Shown here one piece after another: positions 3,610 through 50,940 of a DNA stretch of 64,000 nt; within the stretch, counting starts at the first letter, position 1; every line of letters begins with the position of its first letter. Both the position numbers and the translations under genes were made by a program. Below the pieces are notes generated by a model. That model was not told the DNA's origin, searched no databases, and saw nothing but the letters and a program-made list of their open reading frames with translations. This stretch comes from an uncultured Actinomycetota bacterium (GTDB taxonomy: Bacteria; Actinomycetota; Actinomycetes; JAHEKZ01), in NCBI GenBank assembly GCA_963829525.1, contig CAWHIJ010000003.1, positions 2,327,833-2,391,832 of the forward strand, in the 5' to 3' direction.

Positions 3610-5298
3610 TCAGAAGTCGGGAGGCTCGGTGTACCCACCGAAGACTTCGCGCAGACTCGCACAGAGCTCTCCCACCGTGGCCTCCACGCGAACAGCGTCC
3701 AACATGGGTTCGACCACGTTGGTGTTGCTTCTTGCGGCATCTGCGAGATTGCGCAGACGCTCTTGCACGACGCGTTCGTCCCTCGCTGATCGTCTGCTTC
3801 GAAGGCGCTCGACCTGGTCGGTCTCCACCTCGCCAGGGATCTGCAGAACCTCCAGCGGCTCAGCCACCGAGTCGGTGTGGGCATTGACACCTACCACGCG
3901 ACGCTCACCGCTCTCGATGCTGCGTTGGTACCCGTCCGCAGCGTCAGCGATCCCGCGGGTGAACCAACCCGACTCGATGCCGGCAATGATCCCCCGGGTC
4001 ATCGACCCGTTGTCCCCGAGCCCCTCAATTTGGGCAAGGAGTGACTCGACCTCAGCCTCGACCCGATCGGTGGACGCCTCCACGAACCATGAGCCGCCCA
4101 GCGGGTCGATCACGGAAGCGACGCCGGTCTCCTCCAGCAAGACGTGCTGCGTCCGCAAGGCCACCTCGGCCGTCGCCTCAGTCGGGAGACCCAAGACCTC
4201 GTCGTGGGCGTTGGTGTGCAGAGAGTTGGTTCCACCGAGAACTGCGGCGAGCGCTTCGACCGCCGTGCGCACGACGTTGTTCTCCGGTTGCTGCGCGGTG
4301 AGCGAGACCCCGGCAGTCTGAGCATGGAAGCGCAGCCACTGTGCACGCTCGGTGGTGGCACCGTAGCGGTCGCGCATCCACCTGGCCCAGATCCTGCGGC
4401 CCGCACGAAACTTGGCGATCTCCTCGAAGAAATCGATGTGCGCGTCGAAGAAGAAGCTGAGGCGAGCGGCACAGTCGTCCACCGACAGGCCGCGGGCCAG
4501 TCCAAGCTCGACGTAGCCGAACCCATCGGCAAGCGTGAAGGCGAGCTCTTGGGCGGCGGTCGCCCCCGCCTCCCGTATGTGGTACCCGCTGATGCTGATC
4601 GGGTGGTAGCGCGGCATGTGCTGCTGCGTCCACTCGAGCAGGTCGCCGATGAGGCGCAGGTGTGGTGCAGGCGGGAAGATCCACTCCTTCTGGGCGATGT
4701 ACTCCTTGAAGATGTCGGTCTGCAGAGTTCCGCCGAGTGCAGATGGCGAGATCCCCGCGCGCTCTGCTGCGACGACGTAGATGCAGAAGAGCGGAAGGGC
4801 CGGTCCACTGATCGTCATCGACGTCGTCACCGACTCGAGCGGGATATCGCGCAGCAGTCGTTCCATGTCTTGTGCCGAGTCGATGGCCACACCACAGTGC
4901 CCGACCTCGCCAGCGGCCCTCGGGTCATCGGAGTCCAGGCCCATGAGCGTCGGCAGGTCGAAGGCGACGCTGATGCCGTCACCTCCGCTGGCCAGTAGCC
5001 GGTGAAAGCGGGTATTAGTGTCCGCTGCCGTTCCAAATCCGGCGAACTGCCGCACCGTCCAGGGCTTACCCAGGTAGCCAGTCGTGTAGATGCCGCGGGT
5101 GAACGGGTACTCCCCTGGCCAGCCGATGCGCTCGAAGCCAGGGGTGCCATCGGCGCCGAGGTCGTCTGGGCCATAGACCGGCTTGAGCGGGGAGCCGGAG
5201 AGCGTCGACCGGCCAGCTGCATCGGCCGAGGACCCAAGTTGCTTGGCCCAGCGATCCGCAAACCGCGCACGACCACGAGTGAGGTCGTCAGACTCCAT
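3610..5298 (-). CDS. icmA: acyl-CoA mutase large (catalytic) subunit without B12-binding domain, isobutyryl-CoA mutase IcmA-like
   Basis: 562 aa from ATG at 5298 with RBS gagaggag; methylmalonyl-CoA mutase TIM-barrel family blocks (FERIGWPGEYPFTRG, RQFAGFGTA, DSDDPRAAGEVGHCGVAIDS, ISGYHIREAGATAAQELAFTLADG); FAGFG instead of YAGFS is IcmA-like; no C-terminal Rossmann B12 domain. Confidence 0.8.
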   Translation of the reverse strand: MESDDLTRGRARFADRWAKQLGSSADAAGRSTLSGSPLKPVYGPDDLGADGTPGFERIGWPGEYPFTRGIYTTGYLGKPWTVRQFAGFGTAADTNTRFHRLLASGGDGISVAFDLPTLMGLDSDDPRAAGEVGHCGVAIDSAQDMERLLRDIPLESVTTSMTISGPALPLFCIYVVAAERAGISPSALGGTLQTDIFKEYIAQKEWIFPPAPHLRLIGDLLEWTQQHMPRYHPISISGYHIREAGATAAQELAFTLADGFGYVELGLARGLSVDDCAARLSFFFDAHIDFFEEIAKFRAGRRIWARWMRDRYGATTERAQWLRFHAQTAGVSLTAQQPENNVVRTAVEALAAVLGGTNSLHTNAHDEVLGLPTEATAEVALRTQHVLLEETGVASVIDPLGGSWFVEASTDRVEAEVESLLAQIEGLGDNGSMTRGIIAGIESGWFTRGIADAADGYQRSIESGERRVVGVNAHTDSVAEPLEVLQIPGEVETDQVERLRSRRSARDERVVQERLRNLADAARSNTNVVEPMLDAVRVEATVGELCASLREVFGGYTEPPDF

Positions 5299-5400
5299 CG
5301 CGCTCCTCTCGTGTCGAGGCCGCTCGGTGGCCAAACGTGTGGCAATCCGGCGTCCCCAGGCTATCGGTCGTACGGCACGCCCAGCCCGACTGGACAATCC

Positions 5401-5442
5401 TTCCCTACATTGTCTATCGTATCGATCGGCAATGTAGGAAAT
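5401..5442. promoter_or_regulatory. 12-bp imperfect inverted repeat (TTCCCTACATTG-N18-CAATGTAGGAAA) in the divergent icmA / ABC-transporter intergenic region
   Basis: read directly: 11/12 complementary arms flanking an 18-nt spacer containing the ATCGAT/CGATCG sub-palindromes, about 17 nt upstream of the transporter start codon. Confidence 0.3.
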
Positions 5443-5458
5443 ATCGAGAGGAATCGTT

Positions 5459-6572
5459 GATGCTTGGGATCAGGACCCGAACTCGCACCGCCCGATTGGC
5501 CGTCGGTATCGGCGCCATCGTCGCTGCAGTGACCATGACTGCATGCTCGAGTGACAGCGGGGGCGATACGAACGCATCTGACAGCGCATCTCCCGGTGCT
5601 GCCGAGCCCATCACCACGCTCCGTCTGGGGTACTTCCCCAACTTCACCCACGCGCCCGCTCTGATCGGTGTCCAAGAAGGCTTCTTCAAGGACTCCCTGG
5701 CCGAGCAGGACGTCACGGTGACTCCGACGATCTTCAACGCCGGCCCCGACGCCGTCACCGCGCTGCTGAGTAACTCGCTCGACATCGCCTACATCGGCCC
5801 CAACCCCACGGTGGCCGCTTACGTGCAGTCGCAAGGTGACGCGGTGCGCGTCATCGCTGGGGCTGCGTCGGGTGGAGCCGCCCTGGTCGTCAACAAAGAC
5901 ATCACGTCACCGGCCGACCTCAGCGGCAAGACCCTCGCCACCCCACAGCTCGGCAACACCCAGGACGTCGCTCTCCGCTACTGGCTGAAGCAGAATGACC
6001 TGGCCTCCAGCGAGGAAGGCGGCGACGTCACCATCGCGCCGCAGTCGAACTCCGAGGGCCTCACCGCCTTCGCCTCCGGGCAGATCGACGGCGCTTGGGT
6101 GCCAGAACCCTTCGTCTCGCAGTACGTCGCCGCAGGCGCAACGGTGCTGGTGAACGAGAAGGAGCTGTGGCCGAAGGGCCAGTTCGTCACGACCAACGTC
6201 ATCGTGCGCACCCAGTTCCTCGAGCAGTACCCGGACGTGGTCGACGCCTTCCTGGCCGCCCATGTGCAGGCGCTCGAGCTGATCAAGAAGGATCCCGAGA
6301 CTGCCAAGCAGGACGTCAACACCGCCCTCCAGGCGCTGACCGGGTCTCCCCTGGACACCAACATCCTCAACTCGGCGTGGAGCCAGGTCGAGTTCACCGC
6401 CGACCCGCTCAAGGCCACCCTGGTCGAGAGTGCGGCCCACGCGGTCGACGTCGGCCTCCTCGAGCAGAGCGCCATCGACGAGGCGGGCGGCAACTTCGAC
6501 GGCCTCTACGACCTCGACCCGCTCAACGCCGCGCTCAAGAAGGCCGGACTGGACCAGGTGTCGACCTCATGA
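5459..6572 (+). CDS. ABC transporter substrate-binding lipoprotein, NitT/TauT family (aliphatic sulfonate/taurine-type)
   Basis: ATG at 5459 preceded by gagga; signal peptide plus lipobox (AVTMTAC-SSDSGG); SsuA/TauA-like blocks (TLRLGYFPNFTHAPALIG); the longer ORF-track start at 5337 is upstream of the RBS. Confidence 0.75.
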
Positions 6573-7360: not shown

Positions 7361-8216
7361 TGTCGCAGAACGTCCGGCCACGGGAGAGTCCGGACGTGAA
7401 AGCATGATCCCTCACCGACCTTCACCACTAGCCGCTGTCAGTCGCATCTGGTCGTGGACCTGGCCGAAGCTGATCGCGCTCGGCATCGTCCTTGGCGTCT
7501 GGGAGTTCCTGGTTCGGCTTGGCTGGAGAGCGGATTACATCTTCCCGCCGCCCACAACGGTGTTTCAGACTCTCGGCGACCTCATGGGCACCGAGCGCTT
7601 CTGGGACAGCGTCTCCACCACGATCCAGCGGGCGGCCATCGGTTACCTCTCAGCCCTCGTGATTGGTTCACTGATCGGCATCGCCGTGTCGCGCATTCGA
7701 ACTCTGCGATTGGGCGTTGGCTCACTGATTACTGGACTGCAGACGATGCCGTCGATCGCGTGGTTCCCGTTCGCCATCATCGTGTTTGGCGTCAACGAGA
7801 CGGCAATCTTCTTCGTCGTCGTCCTTGGGGCTGCACCGAGCATCGCCAACGGCATCATCTCCGGCATCGACCACGTCCCGCCGACCTTCGTCAGGCTCGG
7901 AAAGGTCATGGGAGCGAACAGCTTCACGCTCTATCGCCACATCGTGCTTCCCGCTGCGCTGCCGTCCTACGTTGCCGGGCTCAGCCAGGGATGGGCGTTC
8001 GCGTGGCGGTCGCTGATGGCCGGTGAGCTGCTCGTGTTCGCGGCGACGTCCGGGGCAATCGGCCAGAACCTCCAAGCCGCACGCGAGCTGATCAAGATGG
8101 ATGAGGTGATGGCCTGGATGATCGTCATCTTGGTGATCGGAATGGTCGCTGACACCATCTTCACCTCGATGTCGCGCAGCCTGAGGAGACGCCGTGGCCT
8201 CGCCATCGATGACTAG
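7350..8216 (+). CDS. ABC transporter permease (SsuC/TauC-like, BPD_transp_1)
   Basis: six predicted TM segments, translationally coupled (11-nt overlap) to the ATPase gene. Confidence 0.8.
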   Translation: MSLDVAERPATGESGRESMIPHRPSPLAAVSRIWSWTWPKLIALGIVLGVWEFLVRLGWRADYIFPPPTTVFQTLGDLMGTERFWDSVSTTIQRAAIGYLSALVIGSLIGIAVSRIRTLRLGVGSLITGLQTMPSIAWFPFAIIVFGVNETAIFFVVVLGAAPSIANGIISGIDHVPPTFVRLGKVMGANSFTLYRHIVLPAALPSYVAGLSQGWAFAWRSLMAGELLVFAATSGAIGQNLQAARELIKMDEVMAWMIVILVIGMVADTIFTSMSRSLRRRRGLAIDD

Positions 8217-8379
8217 AACCACGCGCTCGACGCCCACTCAACGCCAACCGGCAAAGACGCCCGCCCGGTCCACGTCCGACCCCGTGGACCGGGCGGGGGG
8301 TCGTCGTAGCCAATCGGCAGGAGCCACCTCAAAGGGGGGCTCCTCGCGCCGACGCCGCCGAAGCGGCAAGAATGGCACC

Positions 8380-8838
8380 ATGCACGTGTCCGCGAAGGTC
8401 GACTACGCCATGAGGGCCCTGCTTGTCATTGCCCGCGAGTCCGGCCAGGACGGAACCCTCATCAAGGGCGAACACCTCGCGGCCCAACAAGACATCCCCG
8501 CCCGGTTCCTCGAAGGGATCCTCCGACAGCTGAGGCAGGCTGGGATCGTAGCGAGCCAGCGAGGTGCTGACGGCGGGTACCGGCTGGCTAGGTCGGCGTC
8601 GGCCATCACGGTCGCTGACGTGGTCCGAGCGCTCGACGGTCCCCTCGCAGACGTGCGCGGAGACCGTCCCGAGAACGCCGACTATGAAGGAGCCGCCGAG
8701 CATCTTCGCGATGTGTGGGTGGCAACGCGAGCTGCGTTGCGAGGCGTGCTCGAGCACGTGACGCTGCAAGACATCGCCAGCGGCCAGCTGCCCGCACCGG
8801 TGACTGACCTGACCACCGACCCCTCGGCCTGGTCGTAG
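8380..8838 (+). CDS. Rrf2 family transcriptional regulator
   Basis: 152 aa from ATG 8380; N-terminal wHTH typical of Rrf2 (KVDYAMRALLVIA...IPARFLEGILRQLRQAGIVASQRGADGGYRLAR). Confidence 0.7.
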   Translation: MHVSAKVDYAMRALLVIARESGQDGTLIKGEHLAAQQDIPARFLEGILRQLRQAGIVASQRGADGGYRLARSASAITVADVVRALDGPLADVRGDRPENADYEGAAEHLRDVWVATRAALRGVLEHVTLQDIASGQLPAPVTDLTTDPSAWS

Positions 8839-8876
8839 CCGGTCATCTGAGGCAGGCCTCACCTAGCACTCAATCC

Positions 8877-9656
8877 ATGTCTCTCACCGAAGGCAGCCTT
8901 GCCTTCCTGCTCGCCATGGGTATCTCAGCGCTGACAGTTCCGGCTGGCGTGTCCGGCGCCGTCTTCCTCCTTCCGGCGCAACTGTCGCTCCTCGGCATGC
9001 CGAGTCCGGCTGTTACGCCCACGAACCTGCTCTACAACGTCATCGCCACACCGGCAGCCATTCTGCGGATGCGCCGCCATGGGCACACCTCGAGCGAGTT
9101 AGTGCGGCCGGTGCTGTACGGGGCCCTGCCCGGTGTCGCAGTTGGTGCGGTCCTTCGTACGACGGTGGCGTCCGGCGCTGGCGTGTTCCGCATGCTGGTG
9201 GGTCTGATGCTCGTCCTTCTCGGCACCCATCTGCTTCGGCGCGCCAGCCACGCCGACAGCCGACGCAGCCGCCACCCTTCGTCGCGAAGTCTGGTTCTCC
9301 TGGGGCTCGCGACGGGAACGATCGGTGGCCTCTACGGGATCGGCGGTGGGTCGATCCTCGCTCCCCTGCTCGCATTCATGGGGTTTGCCCTCGCCGATGT
9401 CGCGGTGGCGGCCCTGACGGTCACCTTCGCCACCTCGGTGGCCGGGGTGCTCGCCTTCACCCTGCTGGCACTGCTCGGTCGAACCGAAGCGGCTCCTGAC
9501 TGGGCCATCGGGACCATCCTCGGTCTCGGTGGGCTCGTCGGGGGCTACCTCGGAGCGATCTGCCAGCCCTACTTGCGAGAAACGACCCTCCGCAAAATGC
9601 TCGGCGGTCTCGCCCTGGCGGTGGGTGCGACCTATCTCGTCGTAGCGCTGACCTAG
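8877..9656 (+). CDS. TauE/SafE (TSUP) family sulfite/organosulfonate exporter-type membrane protein
   Basis: 259 aa, 7-8 TM, glycine-rich signature GGLYGIGGGSILAPLL typical of DUF81/TauE. Confidence 0.7.
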   Translation: MSLTEGSLAFLLAMGISALTVPAGVSGAVFLLPAQLSLLGMPSPAVTPTNLLYNVIATPAAILRMRRHGHTSSELVRPVLYGALPGVAVGAVLRTTVASGAGVFRMLVGLMLVLLGTHLLRRASHADSRRSRHPSSRSLVLLGLATGTIGGLYGIGGGSILAPLLAFMGFALADVAVAALTVTFATSVAGVLAFTLLALLGRTEAAPDWAIGTILGLGGLVGGYLGAICQPYLRETTLRKMLGGLALAVGATYLVVALT

Positions 9657-10558
9657 CGCTCCGTGGGTGCGAGCGTAGCTGCGGCGGTGTACGGATCGGT
9701 CTCCCCTGAGACAACGTCAGCAGCGAGGCGGTCCAGTTGTTGAGCAGCATCGCTGTTGTTCAGGCCAGACCGCACTGCGGCAACAACCAGCGCCTCGATC
9801 TCGGCCCTGGCACGGAACTGGCGGCGCACCCGCAGCTCGTCGTGGTCGACGAGATGGGCCCGGTGCCGGTCGATCTCATCAAGGAGCTCGTCGATCCCCT
9901 CTCCGCGCGAGGCGACCGTCTTGAGGATCGGCGGACGCCACTCGGGTGCATCTGCCCCCTCGACGTTGCGACCAATGGCCAGCATGGAGCGCAGCTCACG
10001 CGCGGTGACGTCAGCACCGTCACGGTCAGCCTTGTTGACGCAGTACACGTTGCCGATCTCAAGGATGCCGGCCTTTGCGGCCTGGATGGCGTCGCCCATG
10101 CCTGGGGCGAGCAGAACCACCGTGGTGTCGGCCAAACCTGCAACCTCGACCTCAGATTGTCCGACACCCACCGTCTCGATCAGGACGACGTCACATCCCG
10201 CAGCGTCGAGGACGCGCACCGCTTGAGGTGCAGCCGCAGCGAGGCCACCGAGATGACCGCGGGTGGCCATCGACCGGATGAAGACTCCCGGATCGGTGGC
10301 GTGCTCCTGCATGCGCACGCGGTCACCGAGCAACGCCCCACCGGTGAACGGCGAGGAGGGGTCGACCGCCAGCACTCCGACGCGGCGTCCGGATAGGCGC
10401 AGCGCCGTCACCAGTGCTGACGTCGTCGTCGACTTCCCAACGCCCGGCGCACCCGTCAGCCCCACCACGTGCGCACGCCCGGTGAGCGGCGCCAACAGGC
10501 GAGCCAACTCGACCAACAGCGGCGACTGGTCCTCAACCAGCGAGATCAGTCGCGCCAC
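9653..10558 (-). CDS. meaB: methylmalonyl-CoA mutase-associated GTPase MeaB (ArgK, G3E family)
   Basis: P-loop GAPGVGKST, switch/G motifs (DPSSPFTGGALLGDRVRM, ETVGVGQSE, NKADR) characteristic of MeaB/ArgK. Confidence 0.85.
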   Translation of the reverse strand: MARLISLVEDQSPLLVELARLLAPLTGRAHVVGLTGAPGVGKSTTTSALVTALRLSGRRVGVLAVDPSSPFTGGALLGDRVRMQEHATDPGVFIRSMATRGHLGGLAAAAPQAVRVLDAAGCDVVLIETVGVGQSEVEVAGLADTTVVLLAPGMGDAIQAAKAGILEIGNVYCVNKADRDGADVTARELRSMLAIGRNVEGADAPEWRPPILKTVASRGEGIDELLDEIDRHRAHLVDHDELRVRRQFRARAEIEALVVAAVRSGLNNSDAAQQLDRLAADVVSGETDPYTAAATLAPTER

Positions 10559-12498: not shown

Positions 12499-13845
12499 GT
12501 GCAGCCCATGCAGCAGATCATTGACGCCATCACCTCAAGCGAGGCGTCGTCTGACGACTTCGCGGCTCTCGAGGTTCCCGAGTCGTACACCGGGGCGCTT
12601 CTCCGCCAGGAGGACGAGAAGATGTTCGAGGGCGTGCCAACCTTCGACCGCGACCCGCGCAAGTCGCTGCGTATCGAGGACGTTCCGGTCCCCGAGGTCG
12701 GACCCGGCGAGGCCCTCATCGCGGTCATGGCCTCGTCGATCAACTACAACACCGTCTGGTCGAGCATCTTCGAACCCGTGTCTACCTTCGGATTCCTGCG
12801 CCGCTACGGACGCACGTCTCCCCTGGCCAAGCGTCATGACCTGCCCTACCACGTCATCGGGTCCGACCTGTCCGGCGTTGTTCTGCGCACCGGTCCAGGC
12901 GTCCACGTCTGGCACCCAGGCGACGAAGTCGTCGCACACTGCCAGTCGGTCGAGCTGGAGAGCCCGCTCGGTCACAACGACACCATGCTCGACCCCGAGC
13001 AGCGGATCTGGGGCTTTGAGACAAACTTCGGTGGGCTTGCGCAGCTGGCTTTGGTCAAGTCGAACCAGCTGCTCGAAAAGCCGGCCCACCTCAACTGGGA
13101 GGAAGCCGCGTCGCCCGGTCTGGTCAACAGCACCGCTTACCGCCAGCTGGTCAGTCGCAATGGCGCGGGCATGAAGCAGGGGGACATCGTCCTGATCTGG
13201 GGAGCGAGCGGTGGCCTCGGCTCCTACGCCACTCAGATGGCGCTCAACGGAGGAGCCACGCCTGTCTGCATCGTGTCGTCCCCTGAGAAGGCCGAGATCG
13301 TCCGCAGCATGGGCGCCGATCTCATCATCGACCGCAGCGCAGAGAGCTACCGGTTCTGGAAGGACGAGTCCACCCAGGATCCGTCGGAGTGGAAAAGATT
13401 CGGTAGCAAGATTCGCGAGCTCACCGGTGGCGACGACGTCGACATCGTCTTCGAACACCCTGGACGGGAGACCTTTGGCGCGAGCGTCTACGTCGCGCGC
13501 AAGGGCGGGACGATCGTCACGTGCGCGTCGACCTCCGGTTACATGCACGAGTACGACAACAGGTACTTCTGGATGAACCTTAAGCGCATTGTCGGATCAC
13601 ACTTTGCCAACTACCGCGAGGCATGGGAGGCCAACCGCCTCATCCAGCGTGGCAAGATCCACCCGACGCTGTCGAAGTCCTACCCCCTCGTCGAGACCGG
13701 TCAGGCCGCCTTCGAGGTGCACCGCAACATGCACCAGGGAAAGGTCGGCGTGCTGTGCCTGGCGCCTGAAGAAGGGCTCGGAGTCCGTGACCCCGAACTT
13801 CGTGCCAAGCACCTGGACGCGATCAACCGCTTCCGCGAGAAGTAG
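12499..13845 (+). CDS. ccr: crotonyl-CoA carboxylase/reductase
   Basis: near-colinear similarity to Streptomyces Ccr (DPRKSLRIEDVPVPEVGPGEALIAVMASSINYNTVWSSIFEP...HPGRETFGASVYVARKGGTIVTCASTSGYMHEYDNRYFWM); GTG start at 12499 is 5 nt after ggagg. Confidence 0.9.
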   Translation: MQPMQQIIDAITSSEASSDDFAALEVPESYTGALLRQEDEKMFEGVPTFDRDPRKSLRIEDVPVPEVGPGEALIAVMASSINYNTVWSSIFEPVSTFGFLRRYGRTSPLAKRHDLPYHVIGSDLSGVVLRTGPGVHVWHPGDEVVAHCQSVELESPLGHNDTMLDPEQRIWGFETNFGGLAQLALVKSNQLLEKPAHLNWEEAASPGLVNSTAYRQLVSRNGAGMKQGDIVLIWGASGGLGSYATQMALNGGATPVCIVSSPEKAEIVRSMGADLIIDRSAESYRFWKDESTQDPSEWKRFGSKIRELTGGDDVDIVFEHPGRETFGASVYVARKGGTIVTCASTSGYMHEYDNRYFWMNLKRIVGSHFANYREAWEANRLIQRGKIHPTLSKSYPLVETGQAAFEVHRNMHQGKVGVLCLAPEEGLGVRDPELRAKHLDAINRFREK

Positions 13846-13851
13846 GTCGGC

Positions 13852-14592
13852 TCACCCGTCCACGCGGCGCATCAGGCGTCGCAGTGCCGACGCCACCTCA
13901 GCAGGGGCCTCGAGCGGAGTGAGGTGTCCAGCATTGGCGACGACGACGAGTTCACCGTCGGACAGAACCGCGGCCATCGCCTCCGCGTCAGAAGGTGGCG
14001 AAAGGACGTCTTCAGCGCCCACTGCGACGAGTGCGGGAACATCGATCGCGGCGAGAGTCGGCACCGAGTCGGGCCGCACCGCCATGGCCAACTGCGCCCA
14101 GGCGGCTGCGGCAGGGGGTGCAGCACTCACCGATGCTCGTACGGACGCAGCAAGCTCTGGCCGCTGCGCGTGCGTCGTGGCCCCCAGCAACTTTGGGTAG
14201 ACGTTCTCGAGCAGCGGCACAGTAGTCGCTTGGTCGCGCATGACACGTGCCATGGCGCGGCGTCCCGCTGCCGCCGACTCAGCGTCGGCCGACGCCTTGG
14301 TATCGATCAGCGCCAGCCCGGCGACTCGTTCGCGATAGCGGCGACAGAAGGCCATTGCGGTGTAGCCACCCATCGACGTGCCGCCGATGACGACGCGGTC
14401 AAGAGCTGCTGCATCGAGTTCTCGCGCAACGTGGTCGGCATAGACATCGAGACTCGGCTCGAGATCAGGCACGCTCGAGCCACCAAACCCTGGCAGGTTC
14501 GGTGTGAGCAGTCTCCCGTTGAAAGCTGCTGCCACGTCGGCGTACATCGCGGCGTTCAACGGGAAGGCGTGCAGCAAGACCAATGGTGTCAT
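13852..14592 (-). CDS. alpha/beta-fold hydrolase
   Basis: nucleophile elbow GTSMGG, 246 aa. Confidence 0.6.
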   Translation of the reverse strand: MTPLVLLHAFPLNAAMYADVAAAFNGRLLTPNLPGFGGSSVPDLEPSLDVYADHVARELDAAALDRVVIGGTSMGGYTAMAFCRRYRERVAGLALIDTKASADAESAAAGRRAMARVMRDQATTVPLLENVYPKLLGATTHAQRPELAASVRASVSAAPPAAAAWAQLAMAVRPDSVPTLAAIDVPALVAVGAEDVLSPPSDAEAMAAVLSDGELVVVANAGHLTPLEAPAEVASALRRLMRRVDG

Positions 14593-14607
14593 GGTGTTGA
14601 GGACCTC

Positions 14608-15684
14608 TCAGGGACTGGCTGACAGGACGACGAACCCTGCGAAGAGCACCAGGTGCACGCCGCCCTGCATCACGGTGGACCTGCCCGGAGTAATGGTCAA
14701 GGCTGCCACGAACATCGTGATCGCGAGTAGCACGACCTGAACAGGCGCAAGACCGAGGAGCAGCGGGGTATCGATGATCTCTGACAACACCGCGATCACG
14801 GGAATCGTCAGCCCGATACTCGCCATTGCCGAGCCCAGCGCGAGATTCAGGCTGGCCTGCATCTGGTTGCCCCACGCCGCGCGAACAGCCGCTGCTCCCT
14901 CGGGAAGCAGGATCAAGAAGGCGATCACCACACCGACGAAGGATGCAGGGAGTCCGGCGGCATCGATCCCTTCCTCGATGTTGGGCGAGACGGTCTTTGC
15001 CAACCCCACGACGGCGACCAGTGCCACCACGAGCAACACCAGACTTGTCACGGCTTCCCTTGCACCGGGCGAGCTGGCGACGAGGGCATCATCTCGATCA
15101 TCGGTGGCATCGTCCGATACGAAGTAGTCGCGATGGCGGATCGCTTGCACGAAGACGAAGAGCCCGTAGAGGGAGAGCGACGCCAAGGATGCGTAGGCGA
15201 GCTGTCCACCGCTCAGCGTCGGCCCCGAAGTCGTTGTCGTGTAGGCAGGAACCACAAGAGTCAAGGTGGCCAGGGCAGCTACTGTCGCGAGCGCTGCGCC
15301 AGAGCCTTCTGCGTTGAACGTGGGGATGTGGTGTCGAAACGCCGCCGTCAGAAGCGCCACTCCGATGATCCCGTTGCAGGTGATCATGACGGCCGAGAAG
15401 ACGGTGTCCCGAGCCAAGGATGAAGGCTCAGGCCCAGCCGAGACCATCACTGCGACGATGAGGGCCACCTCGATCACGGTGACGGCCACCGCAAGGATCA
15501 ACGTCCCGAACGGTTCGCCGACACGGTGGGCGACGATCTCGGCGTGGTACACGGCAGCGACGATCGTTACCGCAAGCAGCGCGACATCGACGCCAAGGGT
15601 CAACCCGTTGAGCGGACGGTCCCACGACACGACGAGGGCGACCAACGCCGCCCAAGGCGCCACAAAGGCAAGGCGCCGGATCAC
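14608..15684 (-). CDS. chaA: Ca2+/H+ antiporter (ChaA/CaCA family)
   Basis: similarity to E. coli ChaA (AHRVGEPFGTLILAVAVTVIEVALI, paired alpha-repeat regions); GTG start at 15684 overlaps the stop of the upstream gene (GTGA). Confidence 0.75.
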   Translation of the reverse strand: MIRRLAFVAPWAALVALVVSWDRPLNGLTLGVDVALLAVTIVAAVYHAEIVAHRVGEPFGTLILAVAVTVIEVALIVAVMVSAGPEPSSLARDTVFSAVMITCNGIIGVALLTAAFRHHIPTFNAEGSGAALATVAALATLTLVVPAYTTTTSGPTLSGGQLAYASLASLSLYGLFVFVQAIRHRDYFVSDDATDDRDDALVASSPGAREAVTSLVLLVVALVAVVGLAKTVSPNIEEGIDAAGLPASFVGVVIAFLILLPEGAAAVRAAWGNQMQASLNLALGSAMASIGLTIPVIAVLSEIIDTPLLLGLAPVQVVLLAITMFVAALTITPGRSTVMQGGVHLVLFAGFVVLSASP

Positions 15685-16684: not shown

Positions 16685-17557
16685 TCAGGCGTAGACGCGG
16701 AACCCGCGCGTCGACTTCCGGCCGAGGTACCCGGCGGTGACGAGGTGTTCGAGCAAAGGCGCGGGAGCGTACCCAGGCTCACGGAACTCGAGGTAAAGCG
16801 TCCGCTGAATGGCCAGTGCGACGTCTAGCCCCACGACATCGAGCAGCTCGAACGGCCCCATCGGATATCCGCAGCCGACCTTCATCGCATTGTCGATGTC
16901 GTCAGCGGTCGCGTAGTGCGCCTCAAGCATCCGCACTGCATCATTCAAGTACGGGAAGAGCAGAGCGTTGACGATGAACCCGGCACGGTCGCCACACGTG
17001 ACCGGATGCTTGCCGACCCGCTCGCAGACCTGGCGGACCGTCTCGACCACCTCGGGGCCGGTGTTGATGGTGTGCACCACCTCGACCAGCTTCATCACCG
17101 GCGCCGGGTTGAAGAAATGCATACCGACGACGTCCCTCATCCGGGCTGTCGACGCCGCGATCTCGACGATGGGCAGACTCGAGGTGGTGGTTGCCAAGAT
17201 CGCGCCGGGCTTGGCTAGCTCGTCCAGCGTGGCGAAGATCGCCTGCTTGACCGAAAGCTCCTCAACTGTCGCCTCCAGGAAGAGGTCGCAGTCAGCGAGG
17301 TCATCGAAGGAGGTACTGCCGCTGAAACGTCCGAGTGCGGCATCGCGCTCCTCCTCGGTGATCTTCCCTCTGACGACGGCTTTCTCCAGGGATTTGCCTA
17401 TAGAGAGCCGCGCCTTGTCGATCTGCTCCGTACCGCGCGCGCGAAGCACCACGTCGTACCCGGCCTTGCAGAAAACCTCAGCGATCCCCACGGCCATCGT
17501 TCCTGAGCCAACAACTCCGACCCGTTGGATGGGACGCGGCCTCTGAGCCATCGCCAT
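16685..17557 (-). CDS. hbd: 3-hydroxybutyryl-CoA dehydrogenase (3-hydroxyacyl-CoA dehydrogenase, NAD-binding)
   Basis: Rossmann VGVVGSGTMAVGIAEV, HFFNPAPVMKLVEVV, C-terminal GRKSTRGFRVY. Confidence 0.85.
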   Translation of the reverse strand: MAMAQRPRPIQRVGVVGSGTMAVGIAEVFCKAGYDVVLRARGTEQIDKARLSIGKSLEKAVVRGKITEEERDAALGRFSGSTSFDDLADCDLFLEATVEELSVKQAIFATLDELAKPGAILATTTSSLPIVEIAASTARMRDVVGMHFFNPAPVMKLVEVVHTINTGPEVVETVRQVCERVGKHPVTCGDRAGFIVNALLFPYLNDAVRMLEAHYATADDIDNAMKVGCGYPMGPFELLDVVGLDVALAIQRTLYLEFREPGYAPAPLLEHLVTAGYLGRKSTRGFRVYA

Positions 17558-18462
17558 TCGGCACCGGTGTCTGTGCATCGGCGACGAAAGCCGGTGACCC
17601 CGGTGCCTCGTAGGTGTAGAAGCCGCGTCCGGTCTTGCGACCCTTCACGCCGGCCGTCACCATCTGCTTGATGATCGGAGCAGGGGCGTGGAGGCGGTCA
17701 CGCGTCTGCTTGTACATCGTGTCGAGGATCTCGTAGGCGGTATCGAGCCCGATCAGGTCGAGCAGCGCGAGGGGTCCCATCGGAAGGCCGCAGCCCAGCT
17801 TCATCGCGGCATCGATGTCTTCACGCGTCGCGTAGCGCTGCTCATACATCGCAGCGGCATGGTTGAGGTAGCCGAAGAGAAGCGCGTTGGCGATGAAGCC
17901 TGCCTTGTCGCCCACGACGACGGGAACCTTGCCGAGTCGCTCGCTGAGCGCTTTGACGTCGTCGATCACCTGGGCGTCAGTGACGACGGTGCGGATGACC
18001 TCGACGAGCTTCAGAACCGGAGCCGGGTTGAAGAAGTGCATGCCGACCACCTGGGCCGGCCGATGCGTCGCCACCGAGATCTCGGTGACCGACAACGACG
18101 AGGTGTTTGTGGCGAGGATCGCGTCGGGGGCCGTGATCCGGTCGAGCTCGGCGAAGATCTGCTGCTTGAGCTCAAGCTTCTCTGGTACTGCCTCGACCAC
18201 CAGGTGGCAGTCCGCCAGGTCCTCCAGCGACGAGGTAAAGGTGATCCGGTCAAAGATCGCCTGCTTCTCCTCTTCCGAGAGCTTGCCGCGCTTGACCGCT
18301 CGCGAGGTGGACGTCTCGACGTGCTCGATGCCACTGGGCAATGCGCGACTCGTCACGCTCGACGGCGACGACCTCGAGGCCGTTGCGTGCGAACACTTCC
18401 GAGATGCCCGCTCCCATGGTGCCGAGGCCGACAACCCCGACCCGGGTGAACTCACGTGCCAT
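17478..18462 (-). pseudogene. second tandem 3-hydroxybutyryl-CoA dehydrogenase paralog, reading frame broken by a 1-nt frameshift near 18345
   Basis: N-terminus (VGVVGLGTMGAGISEVFARNGLEVVAVE) is in the ORF 18250-18462, the rest (IEHVETSTSRAVKRGK...GRKTGRGFYTY) is in the +1 frame; the 3' end overlaps the next hbd gene by 80 nt; may be a sequencing artefact. Confidence 0.7.
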
Positions 18463-18587: not shown

Positions 18588-19266
18588 GTGCGCCTGGTCA
18601 TTGCCCTTTGCAGCGTGGATTACGTGGGCCGACTCAACGCCCATCTGCCCATGGCAATGCGTCTCATTCTGGTCAAGTCCGACGGATCGGTGTCGATCCA
18701 CGCCGACGACCGGGCGTACAAGCCGCTCAACTGGATGAGCCCCCCGTGCCGCACGACCTTTGACGTTGACGACGCCGGGATCGGCACCTGGGTAGTCAGC
18801 CATACCAAGACGGGTGACCAGCTGACGATCACGATCGAAGAGGTCCTCCACGACAGCGAGCACGAGCTCGGCATCGATCCCGGTCTGCAGAAGGACGGGG
18901 TCGAAGCCCACCTGCAGGCGCTCCTCGCTGAGCACATCGAGTCGATCGGCAAGGGGTGGACGCTCATCCGGCGCGAGTACGGAACGGCCATCGGACCGGT
19001 GGACATCATGGCGCGTGACGCCGATGGCGCGTCCGTTGCCATCGAGATCAAGCGGCGCGGCGACATCGACGGCGTTGAACAGCTCACCCGGTACCTCGAA
19101 CTCCTCAACCGCGATCCGCTCTTGGCTCCGGTTCGTGGAGTGTTCGCCGCTCAGGAGATCAAGCCACAGGCCAAGGTCTTGGCTAACGACCGCGGAATTC
19201 GAGTGCTTCACCCTCGACTACGACGCCCTCCGCGGCCGTGACAAGCCCGAGGATCGGCTCTTCTGA
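18588..19266 (+). CDS. nucS: endonuclease NucS (EndoMS, mismatch-specific), C-terminus displaced by a 1-nt frameshift near 19205
   Basis: near-identity to mycobacterial NucS (MRLVIA.C.VDY.GRL.AHLP...[11 protein letters not shown]...[17 protein letters not shown]...[24 protein letters not shown]); the conserved C-terminal tail [17 protein letters not shown] is read in the +1 frame ending at 19266, while the in-frame ORF stops at 19241. Confidence 0.8.
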
Positions 19267-19330: not shown

Positions 19331-19495
19331 ATGCCAAACGACCCGAATCTCGAACGCAGGATGAACCGGCTCGAGAACGAGACCGTCGCGATCTACGAAC
19401 TGATCGACGACTTCCGCAGCGAAACACGGACCCGCTTCGACCGGATAGAGACCACCCTGGGTGAGGTACTACAACGACTCCCCGAACCAACCTGA
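19331..19495 (+). CDS. small hypothetical coiled-coil protein
   Basis: 54 aa from ATG 19331 (MPNDPNLERRMNRLENE...); position equivalent to small hypothetical genes after nucS in mycobacteria; weak. Confidence 0.3.
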   Translation: MPNDPNLERRMNRLENETVAIYELIDDFRSETRTRFDRIETTLGEVLQRLPEPT

Positions 19496-20052: not shown

Positions 20053-20679
20053 TCAGCCGACGCCATTCCGTTCGGCCCAGACGGCAGCTTGGGTCCGGTC
20101 GAGCACCCCGATCCGTTGAAAGCACGACGTCAGGTGGGCCTTGACCGTCCGCTCGGTTATCCCCAGGCGTCGGGCGATCTGCTTGTTCGACAGTCCCTGC
20201 CTCACGAGCCCAAGCACCTCGGTCTCGCGGGCAGTGAGTTCGACCCTGACCCGTGATGGCTTCTCTGCGCGTGCCGATAGAAGCTCGCGGGCCGCGCGCG
20301 GATGCAGCGGCGACTCCCCTCTGGCAGCAGCCCTGACTCCCGCAAGAATCTCGTCAGGGGAGGCGTCCTTGAGCAGGTAGCCGACGGCCCCGGCGTCGAT
20401 CGCTCCTACGATCCGGTCACGGTCGGAGAACGAGGTGACGATCACCACTGCAATCTCGGGGTGGGCCTCACCGAGTGCCGCAGTCGCCGCGACGCCGTCC
20501 ATCACCGGCATCTGCAAGTCCATCAGAATCACATCAGGGTTCATGAGTTCAGCCAGCTCGATGGCTTCCGCTCCGTTGACGGCGAGCCCCACGACTTCGA
20601 TATCGGAGGTGCTAGCCAGCAGCTGCTGCAGGCCAGCGCGCAGCATCGAGTGGTCGTCGACAACCAGGACCGAGATCAC
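20053..20679 (-). CDS. two-component response regulator, NarL/FixJ (LuxR HTH) family
   Basis: receiver domain (VLVVDDHSMLR...D...LMDLQMP) plus C-terminal LuxR HTH (LTARETEVLGLVRQGLSNKQIARRLGITERTVKAH). Confidence 0.85.
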   Translation of the reverse strand: MISVLVVDDHSMLRAGLQQLLASTSDIEVVGLAVNGAEAIELAELMNPDVILMDLQMPVMDGVAATAALGEAHPEIAVVIVTSFSDRDRIVGAIDAGAVGYLLKDASPDEILAGVRAAARGESPLHPRAARELLSARAEKPSRVRVELTARETEVLGLVRQGLSNKQIARRLGITERTVKAHLTSCFQRIGVLDRTQAAVWAERNGVG

Positions 20680-22121
20680 CTCGCCGGCACCTCCAGCGTC
20701 ACACGGGTGCCCTCCCCTACCGCCGACTCAACCGCCAACCTGCCGCCCGCCTCCGCGGCGAGGTCGCGGAGACCACGAAGCCCGAAACTCTCCGGTACAA
20801 CAGCGGCGTTTGGGTCGAAGCCTTGACCGTCATCGGTGACGACGAGCTTTGCGACCGCAGGCGTCCCCTCGATGACGACGCAAACGTCGAGCCGCTCCGG
20901 AGACGCGTGACGCAGCGAGTTTCGAACGCATTCCTGGGCGGTTCGCCATATCAGCGCAGTCGCATTGTCCGAGAGCTGATCGGTGCCCCGGATGCCGACA
21001 TGCACGTCGACGTCAGCTTGCTCAGCTTGTGCCACGAGATCCTGCAGGGCCGCCCCGAGACCGGCGGCTTGAAGCTGTGGCGGGTAGATCTCGACCAGAA
21101 GAGAACGGAGCGCGAGCAGACTACGGCGCACCGCTGAAGCTAGCCGCTCAAGGTCGGCTTGTAGGCGAGTGCGGTCAAGATCGATGTCCGGGGAGGCGTC
21201 TCTGGCGATCCCGGCAAGGGCGAAGGACGTGCCGGCAAGATCCTGCACAACACCGTCATGGAGGTCGCGTGCAACCCGCCGACGCTCGGCGTCCGAGGCG
21301 TCGGCTGCCATGACCAGGAGCCGCTCACGGTCGGCAGCCGCCGCGTCGGCTCGACGGGAAAGAAGCCAGACGAGGGGGGTGGTCACCAGGAGGAAGATCA
21401 GCAAGCCACCCACCGTGAGCGGTCGAAAGAGTCCGAAGAGCTCGTCGGTGCGCGCCTGGAGGTTGTCGTCGGTCAGGTAGAGCTCGAAGAGCAACGGTTG
21501 GCCGCCAGGGGCCGATACCTTCGTGTACACCTCGAGCACTCGTCCAAGCTGTTGGTCGTAGGAGTTCTCGGACCTACTGAGGTCGGAGACCTCGGCATCC
21601 GAGCCGCCATTGTCGAGCACCGCCCGTTCGTCATCGCCAAGCGGAAACGATTCGTCAATCAACCTGGGCTCATCGGAGTAGACAATTCGTCCATCTGCGT
21701 CCCAGACCTTGACGCGTACCACGTCCCCACCCATGACCCTGCCCCGAATAAGCCGGTCAAAACGGTCGAGGCCGCCTGCCTCCGTGTCGAGCAGCCCCGA
21801 GGAGAGCGCCGGCTCAACGACCGTGTCAGCTAGGAGCTCGGTTGTCGCACGTGCGTCCTCGATCGCCTGTTGTTGTGCTAGCCGTTCGCCCATCACGCCC
21901 GTAAGCCAAGCCAGGAACACCGCAACGACCAGTCCAACCACGACGAACTGCACGACCGGCCGTTGCCAGACCGGTCGTGCAGCTCGCTTGGTTGATGCAG
22001 TGCCCACGGGGGCGGCCTCCGAAAGGGAATGCTGGCTAGAACCCGAGGCTACCTCTGCAGGTCTCACCGGTCGCCGGGTTAGTAGCGCGCCAGCCAATAC
22101 GGTCAGTGCCCGAGAGATCAA
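20676..22121 (-). CDS. sensor histidine kinase (HisKA_3 / NarX-DesK type)
   Basis: two N-terminal TM segments, H-box ERRRVARDLHDGVVQDL, HATPase_c C-terminus; 4-nt overlap with the regulator gene; the true start may be downstream of 22121. Confidence 0.8.
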   Translation of the reverse strand: MISRALTVLAGALLTRRPVRPAEVASGSSQHSLSEAAPVGTASTKRAARPVWQRPVVQFVVVGLVVAVFLAWLTGVMGERLAQQQAIEDARATTELLADTVVEPALSSGLLDTEAGGLDRFDRLIRGRVMGGDVVRVKVWDADGRIVYSDEPRLIDESFPLGDDERAVLDNGGSDAEVSDLSRSENSYDQQLGRVLEVYTKVSAPGGQPLLFELYLTDDNLQARTDELFGLFRPLTVGGLLIFLLVTTPLVWLLSRRADAAAADRERLLVMAADASDAERRRVARDLHDGVVQDLAGTSFALAGIARDASPDIDLDRTRLQADLERLASAVRRSLLALRSLLVEIYPPQLQAAGLGAALQDLVAQAEQADVDVHVGIRGTDQLSDNATALIWRTAQECVRNSLRHASPERLDVCVVIEGTPAVAKLVVTDDGQGFDPNAAVVPESFGLRGLRDLAAEAGGRLAVESAVGEGTRVTLEVPAR

Positions 22122-22437
22122 CCATCAGCCGCCGTACGCTGAACGACCCGCTCGGGCCGCTCGTTGTGGCGTTTCCCCTCGCCGACACGGTGCCGTTGTG
22201 CAACATCCTCCACTTCCAGTTCTGGTTGTTGACATTGCTGTCGACCTCGCCCTCGACCTCAATCCGGCCATTCTGAGGGCTGGCCTTGAGCTTCCAGTCG
22301 CTGTGGCCCGAACACGAACCGCGGCTTATCACGTCGCCGTCTGCCGCTAGGGCGGGGGCGGCAAAGCCGACGAGAACGGCTCCCGAGAGGGCAACCGCGC
22401 CGATCCGGGTAAGCGAAGTCTTCGAGGTGTTGAACAT
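22036..22437 (-). CDS. small secreted protein of unknown function
   Basis: ATG 22437 followed by signal peptide MFNTSKTSLTRIGAVALSGAVLVGFAAPALA, 133 aa, first gene of the apparent three-gene unit with the histidine kinase and regulator. Confidence 0.5.
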   Translation of the reverse strand: MFNTSKTSLTRIGAVALSGAVLVGFAAPALAADGDVISRGSCSGHSDWKLKASPQNGRIEVEGEVDSNVNNQNWKWRMLHNGTVSARGNATTSGPSGSFSVRRLMVDLSGTDRIGWRATNPATGETCRGSLGF

Positions 22438-22629: not shown

Positions 22630-24664
22630 CTAGAGGTCGGCCACGACAAGGCCGTGTGCCCGACGGATCTCTGCCACGATACGCAGCATGATGTCGTCGA
22701 TCGTGTAGTCCTTCGGTGTAAAGACAGCAGCAACGCCCAGAGCTTCGAGAGCCGCGGAGTCGGACTCAGGAATGATGCCGCCAACGACAAGAGGCACATC
22801 GCTCATGCCCGCGGCCCTGATCCGAGACAGCACCTCCGGCACAAGTTCCATGTGTGAGCCCGAGAGCACCGACAAGCCAACAACGTGGACGTCTTCCTCC
22901 ACCGCCGCGGCGGCGATCTGCTCTGGTGTCAGCCGGATCCCCTGGTAGACCACCTCGAACCCTGCATCACGTGCACGCACCGCGATCTGCTCGGCTCCGT
23001 TGGAGTGCCCGTCGAGTCCGGGCTTGCCGACGAGAAACCTCAGCCGGCCCCCGAGTTCAGCCGCCGTCTTCTCGACGGCCGCCCTAACCGCCTCGCCGGA
23101 TACGGAGTCCCCAACGGACGCGGTCTGCGACGAGACTCCTGTTGGCGCGCGGTACTCGCCAAACACGCCCCGCAGCGCGTCCGCCCATTCGCCTGTCGTC
23201 ACGCCGGTCCTGGCACATGCCAAGCTCGCCGGCATCAAGTTCTCACCCGAAGCCGCATCCTTGCTCAGTTTCTCCAAGGCAACGGCTACCGCAACGTCGT
23301 CCCGTTCGGCTCGCCAACTGGCGAGAGCCTCGACTGCACGCTCCTCGACGTCGGCAGCGACGCGTCAGGACCGCGCTGTCGAGGTCGGACAGCAACGGGT
23401 TCGGCTCGGTCGTCGTGAACCGGTTGAGTCCGACAACGACAGCATCTCCCGACTCGATGGCACGACGCCGCTCGGCGTGGGACTGCACGAGGGCTGTCTT
23501 CATGTAGCCGGACTCAACAGCAGCCAGGGCACCGCCGAGCCGCTCGATTCGCGCCATCTCGTCTCGCGCGCCCACCACAAGCTCGCCGACCTTGGCGGCC
23601 ACGACCGGGGAGCCATCGAAGAGGTCGCCGTACTCCAACAGGTCGGATTCAAAGGCCAGCACCTGCTGCATGCGGAGCGACCATTGCTGGTCCCAGGGCC
23701 GAGGCAGGCCGAGAGCTTCGTTCCAGGCAGGCAGTTGAATGGCTCGAGCCCTGGCATCCTTGGACAGTGTGACCGCCAGCATCTCGAGCATGATGCGCGG
23801 CACGTTGTTCTCTGGTTGAGCCTCCGTAAGCCCGAGAGAATTGACCTGCACGCCGTACCGGAACCGCCGCTGCTTCGCGTCCGTGATGCCATAGCGATCT
23901 GCGGTGATCTCGTCCCACAGCTCCACGAAGGCACGCATCTTGCACATCTCCTCGACGAAACGCACCCCAGCGTTGACGAAGAACGAGATGCGCTGGACCA
24001 CTTCGCCGAAGCGTTCTGGCGGCACCTGGCCGGAATCGCGAACGGCGTCGAGCACGGCAATCGCTGTACTCAGGGAGAACGCCAGCTCTTGGACCGGGGT
24101 GGCACCGGCCTCCTGCAGGTGATAGCTGCAGATATTCGTCGGGTTCCATTGGGGAACGTTTGCCACCGTGTAGGTCACCATGTCGGTGATCAGCCGCAGC
24201 GATGGGCCGGGCGGGAAGACATACGTCCCGCGCGACAGGTACTCCTTGATGATGTCGTTCTGTGTCGTTCCCTGAAGTGCGGCTGGATCGACGCCCTGTT
24301 CCTCGGCCACCGCGATGTAGAGGGACAACAGCCACATAGCCGTGGCGTTGATCGTCATCGACGTATTCATCTCGTCAAGCGGGATGCCCTCCATCAGCGA
24401 GCGCAGGTCGCCGAGGTGGGTGACCGGAACGCCGACCTTGCCGACCTCTCCGCGCGCCAGCTCGTCGTCGGGATCGTAGCCGGTCTGCGTCGGCAGGTCG
24501 AAAGCGATCGAGAGCCCCGTCTGCCCCTTGGCCAAGTTCTTGCGAAAGAGCGCGTTCGACGCAGCAGCAGAGGAGTGTCCGGCGTACGTGCGCATAACCC
24601 AGGGTCGGGTCGTGCTCCCGTCCGCTGACTCACTGCGAGTAGGGGTCGATGGGTCGTTCGCCAT
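22630..24664 (-). pseudogene. meaA: ethylmalonyl-/methylmalonyl-CoA mutase family protein with fused C-terminal B12-binding domain (MeaA/Ecm-like), interrupted by a 1-nt frameshift near 23355
   Basis: catalytic domain (MRTYAGHSSAAASNALFRKNLAKGQTGLSIAFDLPTQTGYDPDD...) in ORF 23243-24664; the linker and B12 domain (DVEERAVEALASWRAERDD...ENLMPASLACARTGVTTGEWADALRGVFGEYRA...GKPGLDGHSNGAEQIA) continue in the +1 frame to 22630; the YAGHS signature is MeaA-like from memory; the frameshift may be an assembly error. Confidence 0.75.
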
Positions 24665-26108: not shown

Positions 26109-26428
26109 ATGCCGACCTGGGGCAGCTATTCCTACGTGTACGGACCGCTCATGGCGCTGGTCGCCATCGGTGTCTTCGTGCTCGTTCTTCGTTGGGCCTT
26201 CGGTCGAGGCAGCTCGGTCGTGGAACGCCCGCCTCTGAGCGGCAACCCCGACCAGTACGGGCTGCTCGACTCCGTCGCATCACCGGGCACTTACATCGAG
26301 GCCGAGATCCTGAGGAGCGACTGGACGCCAGTGGGATCAAGGCGACCGTTGCGATGACCAATGACGGACCGCGGCTCATGGTCTGGCCCGAAGACCGAAG
26401 CAGGGCAGAGTCCATCGTCGGCAGTTGA
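26109..26428 (+). pseudogene. small conserved membrane protein (actinobacterial, unknown function) with a frameshift near 26330
   Basis: N-terminal part with TM segment ([31 protein letters not shown]) in frame 26109-26357, conserved C-terminal part ([31 protein letters not shown]) in the neighbouring frame ending at 26428. Confidence 0.4.
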
Positions 26429-29589: not shown

Positions 29590-29976
29590 CTAGATACGGG
29601 CCTCCGCCGCTCGCAGGCGAGTCTCGGCCCGAACCTGCGCCGCGCTTAGCGCCTCTTCGCCTCCGCCACCGTTGCTCGCCCTTTCCAGGGCGGCACGGGC
29701 ACGTTGCACATCGATCTCGTGTGCAAGCTCGGCTACCTCAGCCAGCAGCGACACAGTGTCGCTCTCGACCGAGATGAACCCACCATGCACCGCGGCGGCA
29801 ACCACATCGCCTTCAGTGGTCTTGATCAGGACGACACCGTCGGCCAACTCACCGAGTACCGGCACGTGACCGGTGAGGATCCCGAGATCACCATCGAGCG
29901 TGCGCGCAATGACCATCGTTGCCTCACCGGACCACACAGAACGATCGGCTGCGACCATCTGTACCTGCAGTGTCAC
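29590..29976 (-). CDS. atpC: F1 ATP synthase epsilon subunit
   Basis: 128 aa, typical epsilon beta-sandwich plus helical C-terminus, last gene of the atp operon. Confidence 0.9.
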
Positions 29977-46612: not shown

Positions 46613-47695
46613 CTAGTCGGTCAGCCCCAGCAGGGAAGCAGCAGCGCGCGCGTCGTTTTCGACTGTCACCGGCTGCGGAGCGCCAGCGATCGCCCAGTCG
46701 GGATCCTTCAGACCGTGACCGGTGACGGTACACACCACCCTCTGCCCTGCATCGAGCAAACCAGCGTCCGACTTCTTGAGCAGGCCAGCCACGCCTGACG
46801 CCGACGCCGGTTCGACAAAGACGCCCTCCTGCGAAGAGAGCAGTCGATATGCGGAGAGGATCTCGCGATCGGTCACGGCGTCAATCAGGCCAGCGGACTC
46901 GTCGCGTGCCTCGAGGGCGTACTGCCACGAAGCAGGGTTGCCGATCCTGATCGCTGTGGCGACCGTCGACGGCTTCGGCACCACCTCGCCACGGACGATC
47001 GGTGCAGCCCCTGCCGCCTGAAAGCCCCACATGCGTGGGCGGTGGGAGGCCATCGCATCGTCGGCGTACTCGCGGTAGCCCCTCCAGTAGGCGGTGATGT
47101 TGCCCGCGTTCCCAACCGGGAGCGCGTGGATGTCTGGCGCATCCCCCAACTGATCGACAATCTCAAATGCGGCCGTCTTCTGTCCTTCGATCCGCGCCGG
47201 GTTCACGCTGTTGACCAGGGCAACCGGATACTGCTCGGAAAGCTCGCGTGCCAACGTCAGGCAGTCGTCGAAGTTGCCATCGACCTGAATCAGGCGGGCG
47301 CCGTGGGCCAGGGCCTGGCTCAGCTTGCCGAGCGCGATCTTGCCCTGGGGGACGAGCACAGCGCAAACCATCCCGGCGCGGACGGCGTAGGCAGCAGCAC
47401 TGGCACTGGTGTTGCCCGTCGATGCACAGATTACGGCGCGGGCGCCTTCTTCGGCCGCCTTCGAGATCGCCATCGTCATACCGCGGTCCTTGAAGGAGCC
47501 GGTGGGGTTGGCGCCTTCGACCTTCAGCCACACCTCGCAGCCGGTCCGCTCGGAGACAACGTGGGCGCGCACCAACGGCGTGCCACCCTCTCTCAGCGAG
47601 ACCACCGGTGTCGCGTCACTGACGGGCAGTCGCTCGCGGTACTCGTCGATGATTCCGCGCCACTGCTGGGTCCTTTGTGTCAACACAGTGCTCAC
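46613..47695 (-). CDS. thrC: threonine synthase
   Basis: PLP-lysine motif ([13 protein letters not shown]), 360 aa. Confidence 0.9.
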
Positions 47696-48990: not shown

Positions 48991-49038
48991 TCCTCCCGTC
49001 GGTCGACTCCGGTTGTGACCCAGAGCGTTCCCGAGCAG

Positions 49039-50849: not shown

Positions 50850-50940
50850 GGGTGAAGCTCCTTGCGGTGAGGGCGATCAGTTCGGGCCGGCGAAGTGACG
50901 AGCCTAGTGCGACGGGACAGCCCGACCGAGGGTCGTCCCC

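Follow-up and report, generated by a model that had tools for sequence, protein, structure and literature searches.

A single extra T displaces the last codons of nucS in an actinobacterial contig and is very probably an assembly error

It is known that the final five residues of actinobacterial NucS, with the consensus [E/K]-[L/Y]-[T/R]-L-F, bind the beta-clamp (PMC6159515, PMC8228993). When the NucS of C. glutamicum lacks those five residues, both its stimulation by the clamp and mutation avoidance are abolished (PMC6159515, PMC8228993). The literature thus agrees with a first-pass annotation of the DNA analysed here, according to which the extreme C-terminus of NucS mediates clamp interaction. 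Upon the loss of NucS, transitions alone rise and the numbers of short indels stay unchanged (review PMC8228993). Long-read assemblies are well known to suffer from indels that break up genes (PMC9262707, PMC12007338, and the proovframe preprint, 10.1101/2021.08.23.457338).

The present analysis concerns a nucS gene in a 64,000-nucleotide stretch of DNA from an uncultured actinobacterium, which is called the window. Once one T is dropped near its 3′ end, the gene encodes a protein like the NucS of C. glutamicum, M. smegmatis, and M. tuberculosis (Rv1321), with an end-to-end match to NF002876, the D...ExK motif, and a terminal EDRLF. Unlike those genes, the deposited sequence has the last 21 codons in the +1 frame because of the extra T.

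The nucS gene and its displaced 3′ end

As had been proposed, the ORF starting at 18588 encodes NucS/EndoMS. It runs in frame 0 from a GTG codon to a TGA codon at 19239–19241 (18588–19241, forward strand) and has 217 amino acids. Pfam finds the PH-like NucS_N domain (PF21003; E = 2.9e-31) at residues 2–98, covering profile positions 5–99 of 100, and the RecB-like nuclease domain NucS_C (PF01939; E = 6.9e-39), of which profile positions 1–104 of 124 are covered in a match ending at residue 207. The NCBIfam model NF002876 ("endonuclease NucS") gives this ORF 365.1 bits over profile positions 1–206 of 224. The equivalog cut-off of the model is 252 bits, and both the frame-0 ORF and the repaired protein pass it.

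The portion at 18588–19199 (forward strand) corresponds to residues 1–204 of the repaired protein, according to Pfam, NCBIfam, tblastn, and structure alignment. By tblastn, residues 1–204 of the NucS of a related contig (L085) fall on 18588–19199 with 87% identity. Alignment to the structures 5gke and 2vld puts VDIM...IEIKR on the catalytic motif, with D138, E152, and K154 of NucS_C all in the frame-0 portion. These three residues align with the catalytic positions of 2vld and 5gke.

In frame 0, the reading continues at 19200–19241 (forward strand) through a probably spurious tail of 13 residues and the TGA codon, and there is no Pfam or NCBIfam coverage past residue 207. The whole conserved tail of NucS is found instead in the +1 frame, which is open from 19015. 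This 3′ end comprises 21 codons at 19201–19266 (forward strand) with the stop codon at 19264–19266, and NucS_C is complete only when the extra T is removed and this remainder is joined. Thus, the claim that the conserved C-terminus sits in the +1 frame was borne out: the tail is identical to those of the NucS proteins P0001 and P0002 at 20 of 21 positions, and the repaired protein of 225 amino acids, within the predicted 223–226, scores 395.7 bits against NF002876 over profile positions 1–224 of 224. The mycobacterial likeness of the tail also held when it was compared with the NucS tail of Mycolicibacterium elephantis. The final five codons (19249–19263, forward strand) encode EDRLF, a beta-clamp-binding motif predicted from the sequence on the basis of the published one (PMC6159515, PMC8228993). 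EDRLF matches the clamp consensus at four of five positions and appears in the same form in the closest relatives. The frame-0 product lacks it.

A search of a protein collection with the repaired NucS returned thousands of NucS proteins of 224–225 amino acids, mostly from MAGs of uncultured "Actinomycetes bacterium". The top match is P0001 with 92% identity.

The extra base was located by DNA alignment with six related contigs: L001 and L002, which are short and 93–94% identical at the DNA level; L083, L084, and L085, which are longer; and L086, a JGI contig. All six have a one-column gap at the TT dinucleotide at 19198–19199 (forward strand), and nucS has this single window-specific extra base (net +1). 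The relatives read GGA/GGG/GGC ATC/ATT GAG/CAG/GAC TGC, while the window reads GGA ATT C GAG TGC; the deposited sequence with TT is GGAATTCGAG. When one T is dropped at 19198–19199, the 225-residue NucS is read in one frame (18588–19266 minus one T). The earlier placement of the shift near 19205 was right about the existence of the frameshift and about 6 nucleotides off in its position. When metagenomes were scanned for the sequence pattern of the site, both as it stands and minus the extra base, one contig was returned, L086, with 86% identity and without the insertion; this single scan found no contig of the same population. As a side observation, the extra T makes an EcoRI site (GAATTC, 19195–19200) that is missing in all relatives and is probably meaningless.

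The frameshifted gene is also present in the public collection. P0080, a protein of 196 amino acids called from an internal ATG (MAMRLILVK...), is exactly the frameshifted NucS of the window. It forms a cluster of its own, and its one source contig, of 2,941,646 bp, is in NCBI and ENA. Thus, the extra T belongs to the deposited assembly and not to the extraction of the window. The warning that naive annotation would yield a plausible but wrong NucS has therefore already come true in this miscall.

Single-base indels across the window

Is the extra T of nucS alone? It was found that at least seven single-base indels are spread over five conserved genes in the 64 kb, six of them net +1 insertions and one a deletion. 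Two genes are struck twice each. Every indel that could be placed in an alignment occurs in the window only.

The divergent neighbour of nucS encodes a double-domain 3-hydroxyacyl-CoA dehydrogenase (3HCDHx2; 16688–18462, reverse strand), which is intact and has 591 amino acids in L083 and L085. In the window it is distributed over three frames by +1 insertions around 18346 and 17538, which appear as gaps in the DNA alignment. By tblastn, its pieces (residues 1–43 at 18462–18334, residues 40–307/313 at 18344–17517/17541, and residues 309–591 at 17536–16688) are 88–95% identical to the relatives. The Pfam 3HCDH_N positions 2–44 and 31–179 fall in separate ORFs.

The second gene encodes a fused methylmalonyl-CoA mutase/B12-binding protein (22636–24664, reverse strand) of 655–670 amino acids in the relatives. 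The DNA alignment shows a +1 insertion around 23362, where ACG-GTC has become ACGCGTC. By tblastn, residues 1–427 lie in frame -1 and residues 428–669 in frame -2, with 91–94% identity. Another ORF resembling methylmalonyl-CoA mutase, at 3613–5469 (reverse strand), is apparently intact.

The sole deletion lies in a small conserved hypothetical ORF (26109–26419, forward strand), which encodes 106–120 amino acids in the relatives. One nucleotide is missing between 26315 and 26316, where the relatives have TGAGGCAGC and the window has TGAGGAGC.

The lysA gene for diaminopimelate decarboxylase (49451–50940, reverse strand) is the other gene struck twice. It is read in three frames with junctions around 50229 and 49935, each of them net +1 by frame arithmetic. 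The Pfam matches, Orn_Arg_deC_N 3–136, Orn_Arg_deC_N 138–230, and then the C-terminal Orn_DAP_Arg_deC domain, each lie in their own frame.

Candidate frame junctions came from blastx against the stop-to-stop ORFs of 80 loci and from a segmentation of the whole window by codon usage with the Viterbi algorithm, which was used in place of a GC3 phase plot because the latter was too noisy at 64.9% GC. The segmentation pointed to 49.4–50.9 kb, which is lysA. Many candidates were rejected. Comparison with the called genes of the close relatives showed that the blastx junctions at 10.5, 12.9, 13.8, 16.6, 27.7, 29.9, 31.4, 32.4, and 34.0 kb mark natural gene boundaries or antisense shadow ORFs. The frame changes at 5.3–8.2 kb (parts of an ABC transporter), 40–42 kb (LMW phosphatase, Sua5, and PrmC), 51.3 kb (two small ORFs), and 55.1 kb (TetR and EamA) separate distinct genes. 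The core genes that were examined are in one piece: prfA, rpmE, rho, thrB, thrC, glyA, a wecA-like gene, and argS according to Pfam, atpC and atpD as a single tblastn match each, and hom as a single open ORF.

Except for the shifts themselves, the five genes look sound. On either side of every junction, the tblastn pieces are contiguous and 85–95% identical to the relatives, and comparison with the relatives by tblastn revealed no nonsense codon, in-frame stop, or larger deletion in any of them. None of the seven indels lies in a homopolymer of more than 2 bases. The indels are clustered: they lie about 9 kb apart on average, yet of the six intervals separating them three measure 860 bp or less (p of about 0.01 by a rough binomial estimate). 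This clustering fits a locally poor consensus.

Similar lesions exist in the related contigs. L084 (contig_20146 in ENA) has more than 15 indels in its mutase gene (13558–15537) and a split 3HCDHx2 gene (8041–9817), and L083 has an ADH gene truncated to 224 amino acids (4669–5343), while L085 is clean. The nucS gene is intact in all three. Thus, errors of this kind seem to be common in the public assemblies of the clade.

Origin of the extra base

If the frameshifted genes were decaying, their codons should show it. I counted the codon changes found only in the window, in the repaired frame, by comparing the window with L085, with L083 or L084 serving as the outgroup. Among the frameshifted genes, there are 3 nonsynonymous and 86 synonymous changes in the 3HCDHx2 gene, 5 and 32 in nucS, and 8 and 70 in the mutase gene. 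The intact neighbours gave 3 and 48 for ADH and 4 and 49 for thiolase. The frameshifted genes are thus constrained like their intact neighbours and like the intact orthologues of L085 (14 and 73 for its 3HCDHx2, for example), and nothing among the changes confined to the window points to relaxed selection or decay. Since nearly all of the changes are synonymous, the repaired frames have been translated under purifying selection for essentially all of the history of the lineage. It follows that the seven indels are either all extremely recent or non-biological.

The first-pass annotation had predicted a mutator strain in case the frameshift was genuine. The conditional claim is sound in view of the tail deletion in C. 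glutamicum (PMC6159515). The strain itself gives no sign of it. Over about 13 kb, the window has 862 specific substitutions (407 transitions and 455 transversions), compared with 807 in L085 (416 and 391). In the nucS region, the singletons number 10 in the window (4 transitions and 6 transversions) and 15–16 in L001 (5 and 11) and L002 (9 and 6). Neither an excess of transitions nor a lengthened branch is seen for the window lineage in these two data sets, a comparison that would miss an event of very recent date. Together with the purifying selection in the repaired frame, this result leaves the prediction unsupported.

I consider it very probable that the extra T is a consensus or assembly error, a judgement based on the pattern of the indels and not on any recognised error profile. 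Several features favour an error: the density of the indels, with seven or more single-base changes in 64 kb that strike five conserved genes, the fact that single-base indels are the sole kind of lesion with contiguous flanks, and the lack of the extra T in all six relatives, two of which are 93–94% identical at the DNA level. Moreover, real bacterial pseudogenes have a bias towards deletions. Six of the seven indels are insertions, which is the opposite and likewise favours an error.

The error may have arisen as follows. A true single T would have been read as TT at 19198–19199 in the deposited consensus. The source is a single metagenome contig of 2.94 Mb, probably a long-read MAG, in which error-prone long reads or a mixture of strains probably met with inadequate polishing. 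That the indels originate from sequencing or assembly rather than from the organism, and that long-read data were used, are both things I infer. The spurious T would push the last 21 codons into the +1 frame, and with them the closing structural element of the nuclease domain and EDRLF. It would thereby create a fake ORF of 217 amino acids, or one of 196 amino acids from the internal ATG. The actual gene is, judging from its sequence, most probably an ordinary nucS of 225 codons for a functional actinobacterial mismatch endonuclease.

Two observations do not sit easily with an error. The indels are dominated by insertions and lie outside long homopolymers, while the classic nanopore signature consists of deletions in homopolymers. 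In addition, the predominance of synonymous changes would likewise be expected had a real mutation occurred very recently.

Could the insertion be real and very recent? The NucS protein would then lack the end of the nuclease domain as well as the clamp motif, DnaN could not activate it, and the result would be a hypermutator lineage with a bias for transitions. The extra T does stand in the deposited assembly, and a sufficiently recent event would leave no substitution signature. Removing no more than the five last residues of the C. glutamicum NucS ends both its binding to the clamp and its avoidance of mutations (PMC6159515). In M. tuberculosis isolates, NucS polymorphisms that may affect the mutation rate are reported (PMC8228993). 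On the other hand, six or more indels of equally recent date, in lysA, the 3HCDHx2 gene, the mutase gene, and the small ORF, would be needed at the same time, and a deficiency of NucS does not cause them (PMC8228993). A defect in nucS is therefore ruled out as the cause of the nearby indels, given the unaltered indel rates of delta-nucS strains (PMC8228993). The neighbouring frameshifts must have an origin of their own, and the simplest one covers the indel of nucS as well. Furthermore, there is neither an excess of transitions nor a longer branch, the +1 tail is still identical to its relatives at 20 of 21 positions, and none of the six relatives has the insertion. A real insertion is thus unlikely. 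That this uncultured actinobacterium of 2.9 Mb is a natural NucS-deficient hypermutator, in which the sole mismatch-repair nuclease lost its clamp-binding C-terminus very recently, is a slightly more doubtful proposition still. The annotation had left the choice open between a genuine mutator and an artefact; the artefact is strongly favoured, and the mutator is unsupported in view of the other indels, the selection, and the missing excess of transitions.

A more improbable case is that of co-assembled strains, in which a mutator sub-clone lived beside an intact bulk population and the assembler took the minority state or a chimeric one. Mixtures of strains are usual in metagenomes, from which the contig presumably derives, and clustered indels would suit colliding strain haplotypes. 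Since the six other indels would need the same account, this case amounts in effect to another assembly artefact.

Programmed +1 ribosomal frameshifting, or recoding, that yields full-length NucS as a regulatory device is effectively excluded despite the open +1 frame with its entire conserved tail, since nucS is in a single frame in all six relatives and the window has six further shifts in unrelated sequence contexts. GGA ATT CGA is also unlike +1 shift-prone, stop-adjacent sites such as that of prfB.

The indels resemble those of long-read (meta)genome assemblies in being isolated 1-nt changes that split conserved genes into adjacent ORFs without nonsense mutations or decay. They are unlike the textbook nanopore profile in being mostly insertions outside long homopolymers.

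Gene neighbourhood and comparison with known NucS systems

The region at 29590–53429 contains argS, lysA, thrC, thrB, rho, rpmE, prfA, prmC, sua5, the LMW phosphatase gene, glyA, the wecA-like gene, atpD, and atpC, as identified by Pfam or tblastn. The hom gene (47695–49038) and the rest of the atp operon were assigned from sequence and position, and an Rv1322-like gene and nucS come next. The fragmented lysA lies inside an otherwise intact argS-lysA-hom-thrC-thrB-rho-rpmE-prfA block. I take this order to resemble that of Rv1292–Rv1323 in M. tuberculosis, a classic core synteny of actinobacteria. The gene order supports an origin from Actinomycetes.

Two further features lie close to nucS. Just 3′ of the gene is a short ORF, MPNDPNLERRMNRLENETVAIYELIDDFRSETRTRFDRIETTLGEVLQRLPEPT, at 19332–19495 (forward strand), which encodes 54 amino acids from an ATG codon and looks coiled-coil-like. 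L001 and L002 share its conserved start region (ATGCC.AACGACCCGAAT). The interval that separates nucS from the mutase gene contains, at 20056–22422 (reverse strand), genes for a response regulator and a HisKA_3 histidine kinase together with an ORF of 131 amino acids. This two-component cassette is present in L083 and L084 and absent in L085, which points to a lineage-specific insertion or loss.

The main value of the case is one of caution. A NucS with a wrong tail and without the clamp motif still passes the thresholds of Pfam and NCBIfam (365 versus 252 bits). Thus, surveys of NucS C-termini, or of "natural mutators" in MAGs, would be misled by such sequences. About 8% of the genes in the window are fragmented in a similar way, among them lysA, and false metabolic inferences such as lysine auxotrophy would result. 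If the frameshift were real, a natural NucS-null lineage would be modestly interesting as a wild counterpart of the engineered delta-Cter mutants, an idea that receives no support here.

The repaired NucS is 72–76% identical to the NucS proteins of Rhodococcus, Streptomyces, and Mycolicibacterium among the matches listed. It shares with actinobacterial nucS genes a location near the atp operon and beside an Rv1322-like gene. One difference lies in the second position of the clamp motif, which is D in the window and its nearest relatives and L or Y in the actinobacterial consensus.

The solved structures that come closest are those of the archaeal EndoMS/NucS proteins of T. kodakarensis (5GKE) and P. 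abyssi (2VLD), distant relatives with the same two-domain layout and the same catalytic motif. Residues 3–211 of the window protein align with them (E = 2.6e-22 and 3e-19, respectively). In contrast, both ends of the archaeal proteins extend about 25 residues further, and these proteins use a PIP motif for PCNA rather than a beta-clamp motif (PMC8228993).

The closest engineered counterpart is the delta-Cter form of the C. glutamicum NucS. If the frameshift were real, the same clamp residues would be missing from the window protein, and a mutator would then be expected. The two forms would still differ in extent: delta-Cter retains the rest of the C-terminal domain, whereas here 21 residues, including about 20 positions of the NucS_C profile, are replaced by 13.
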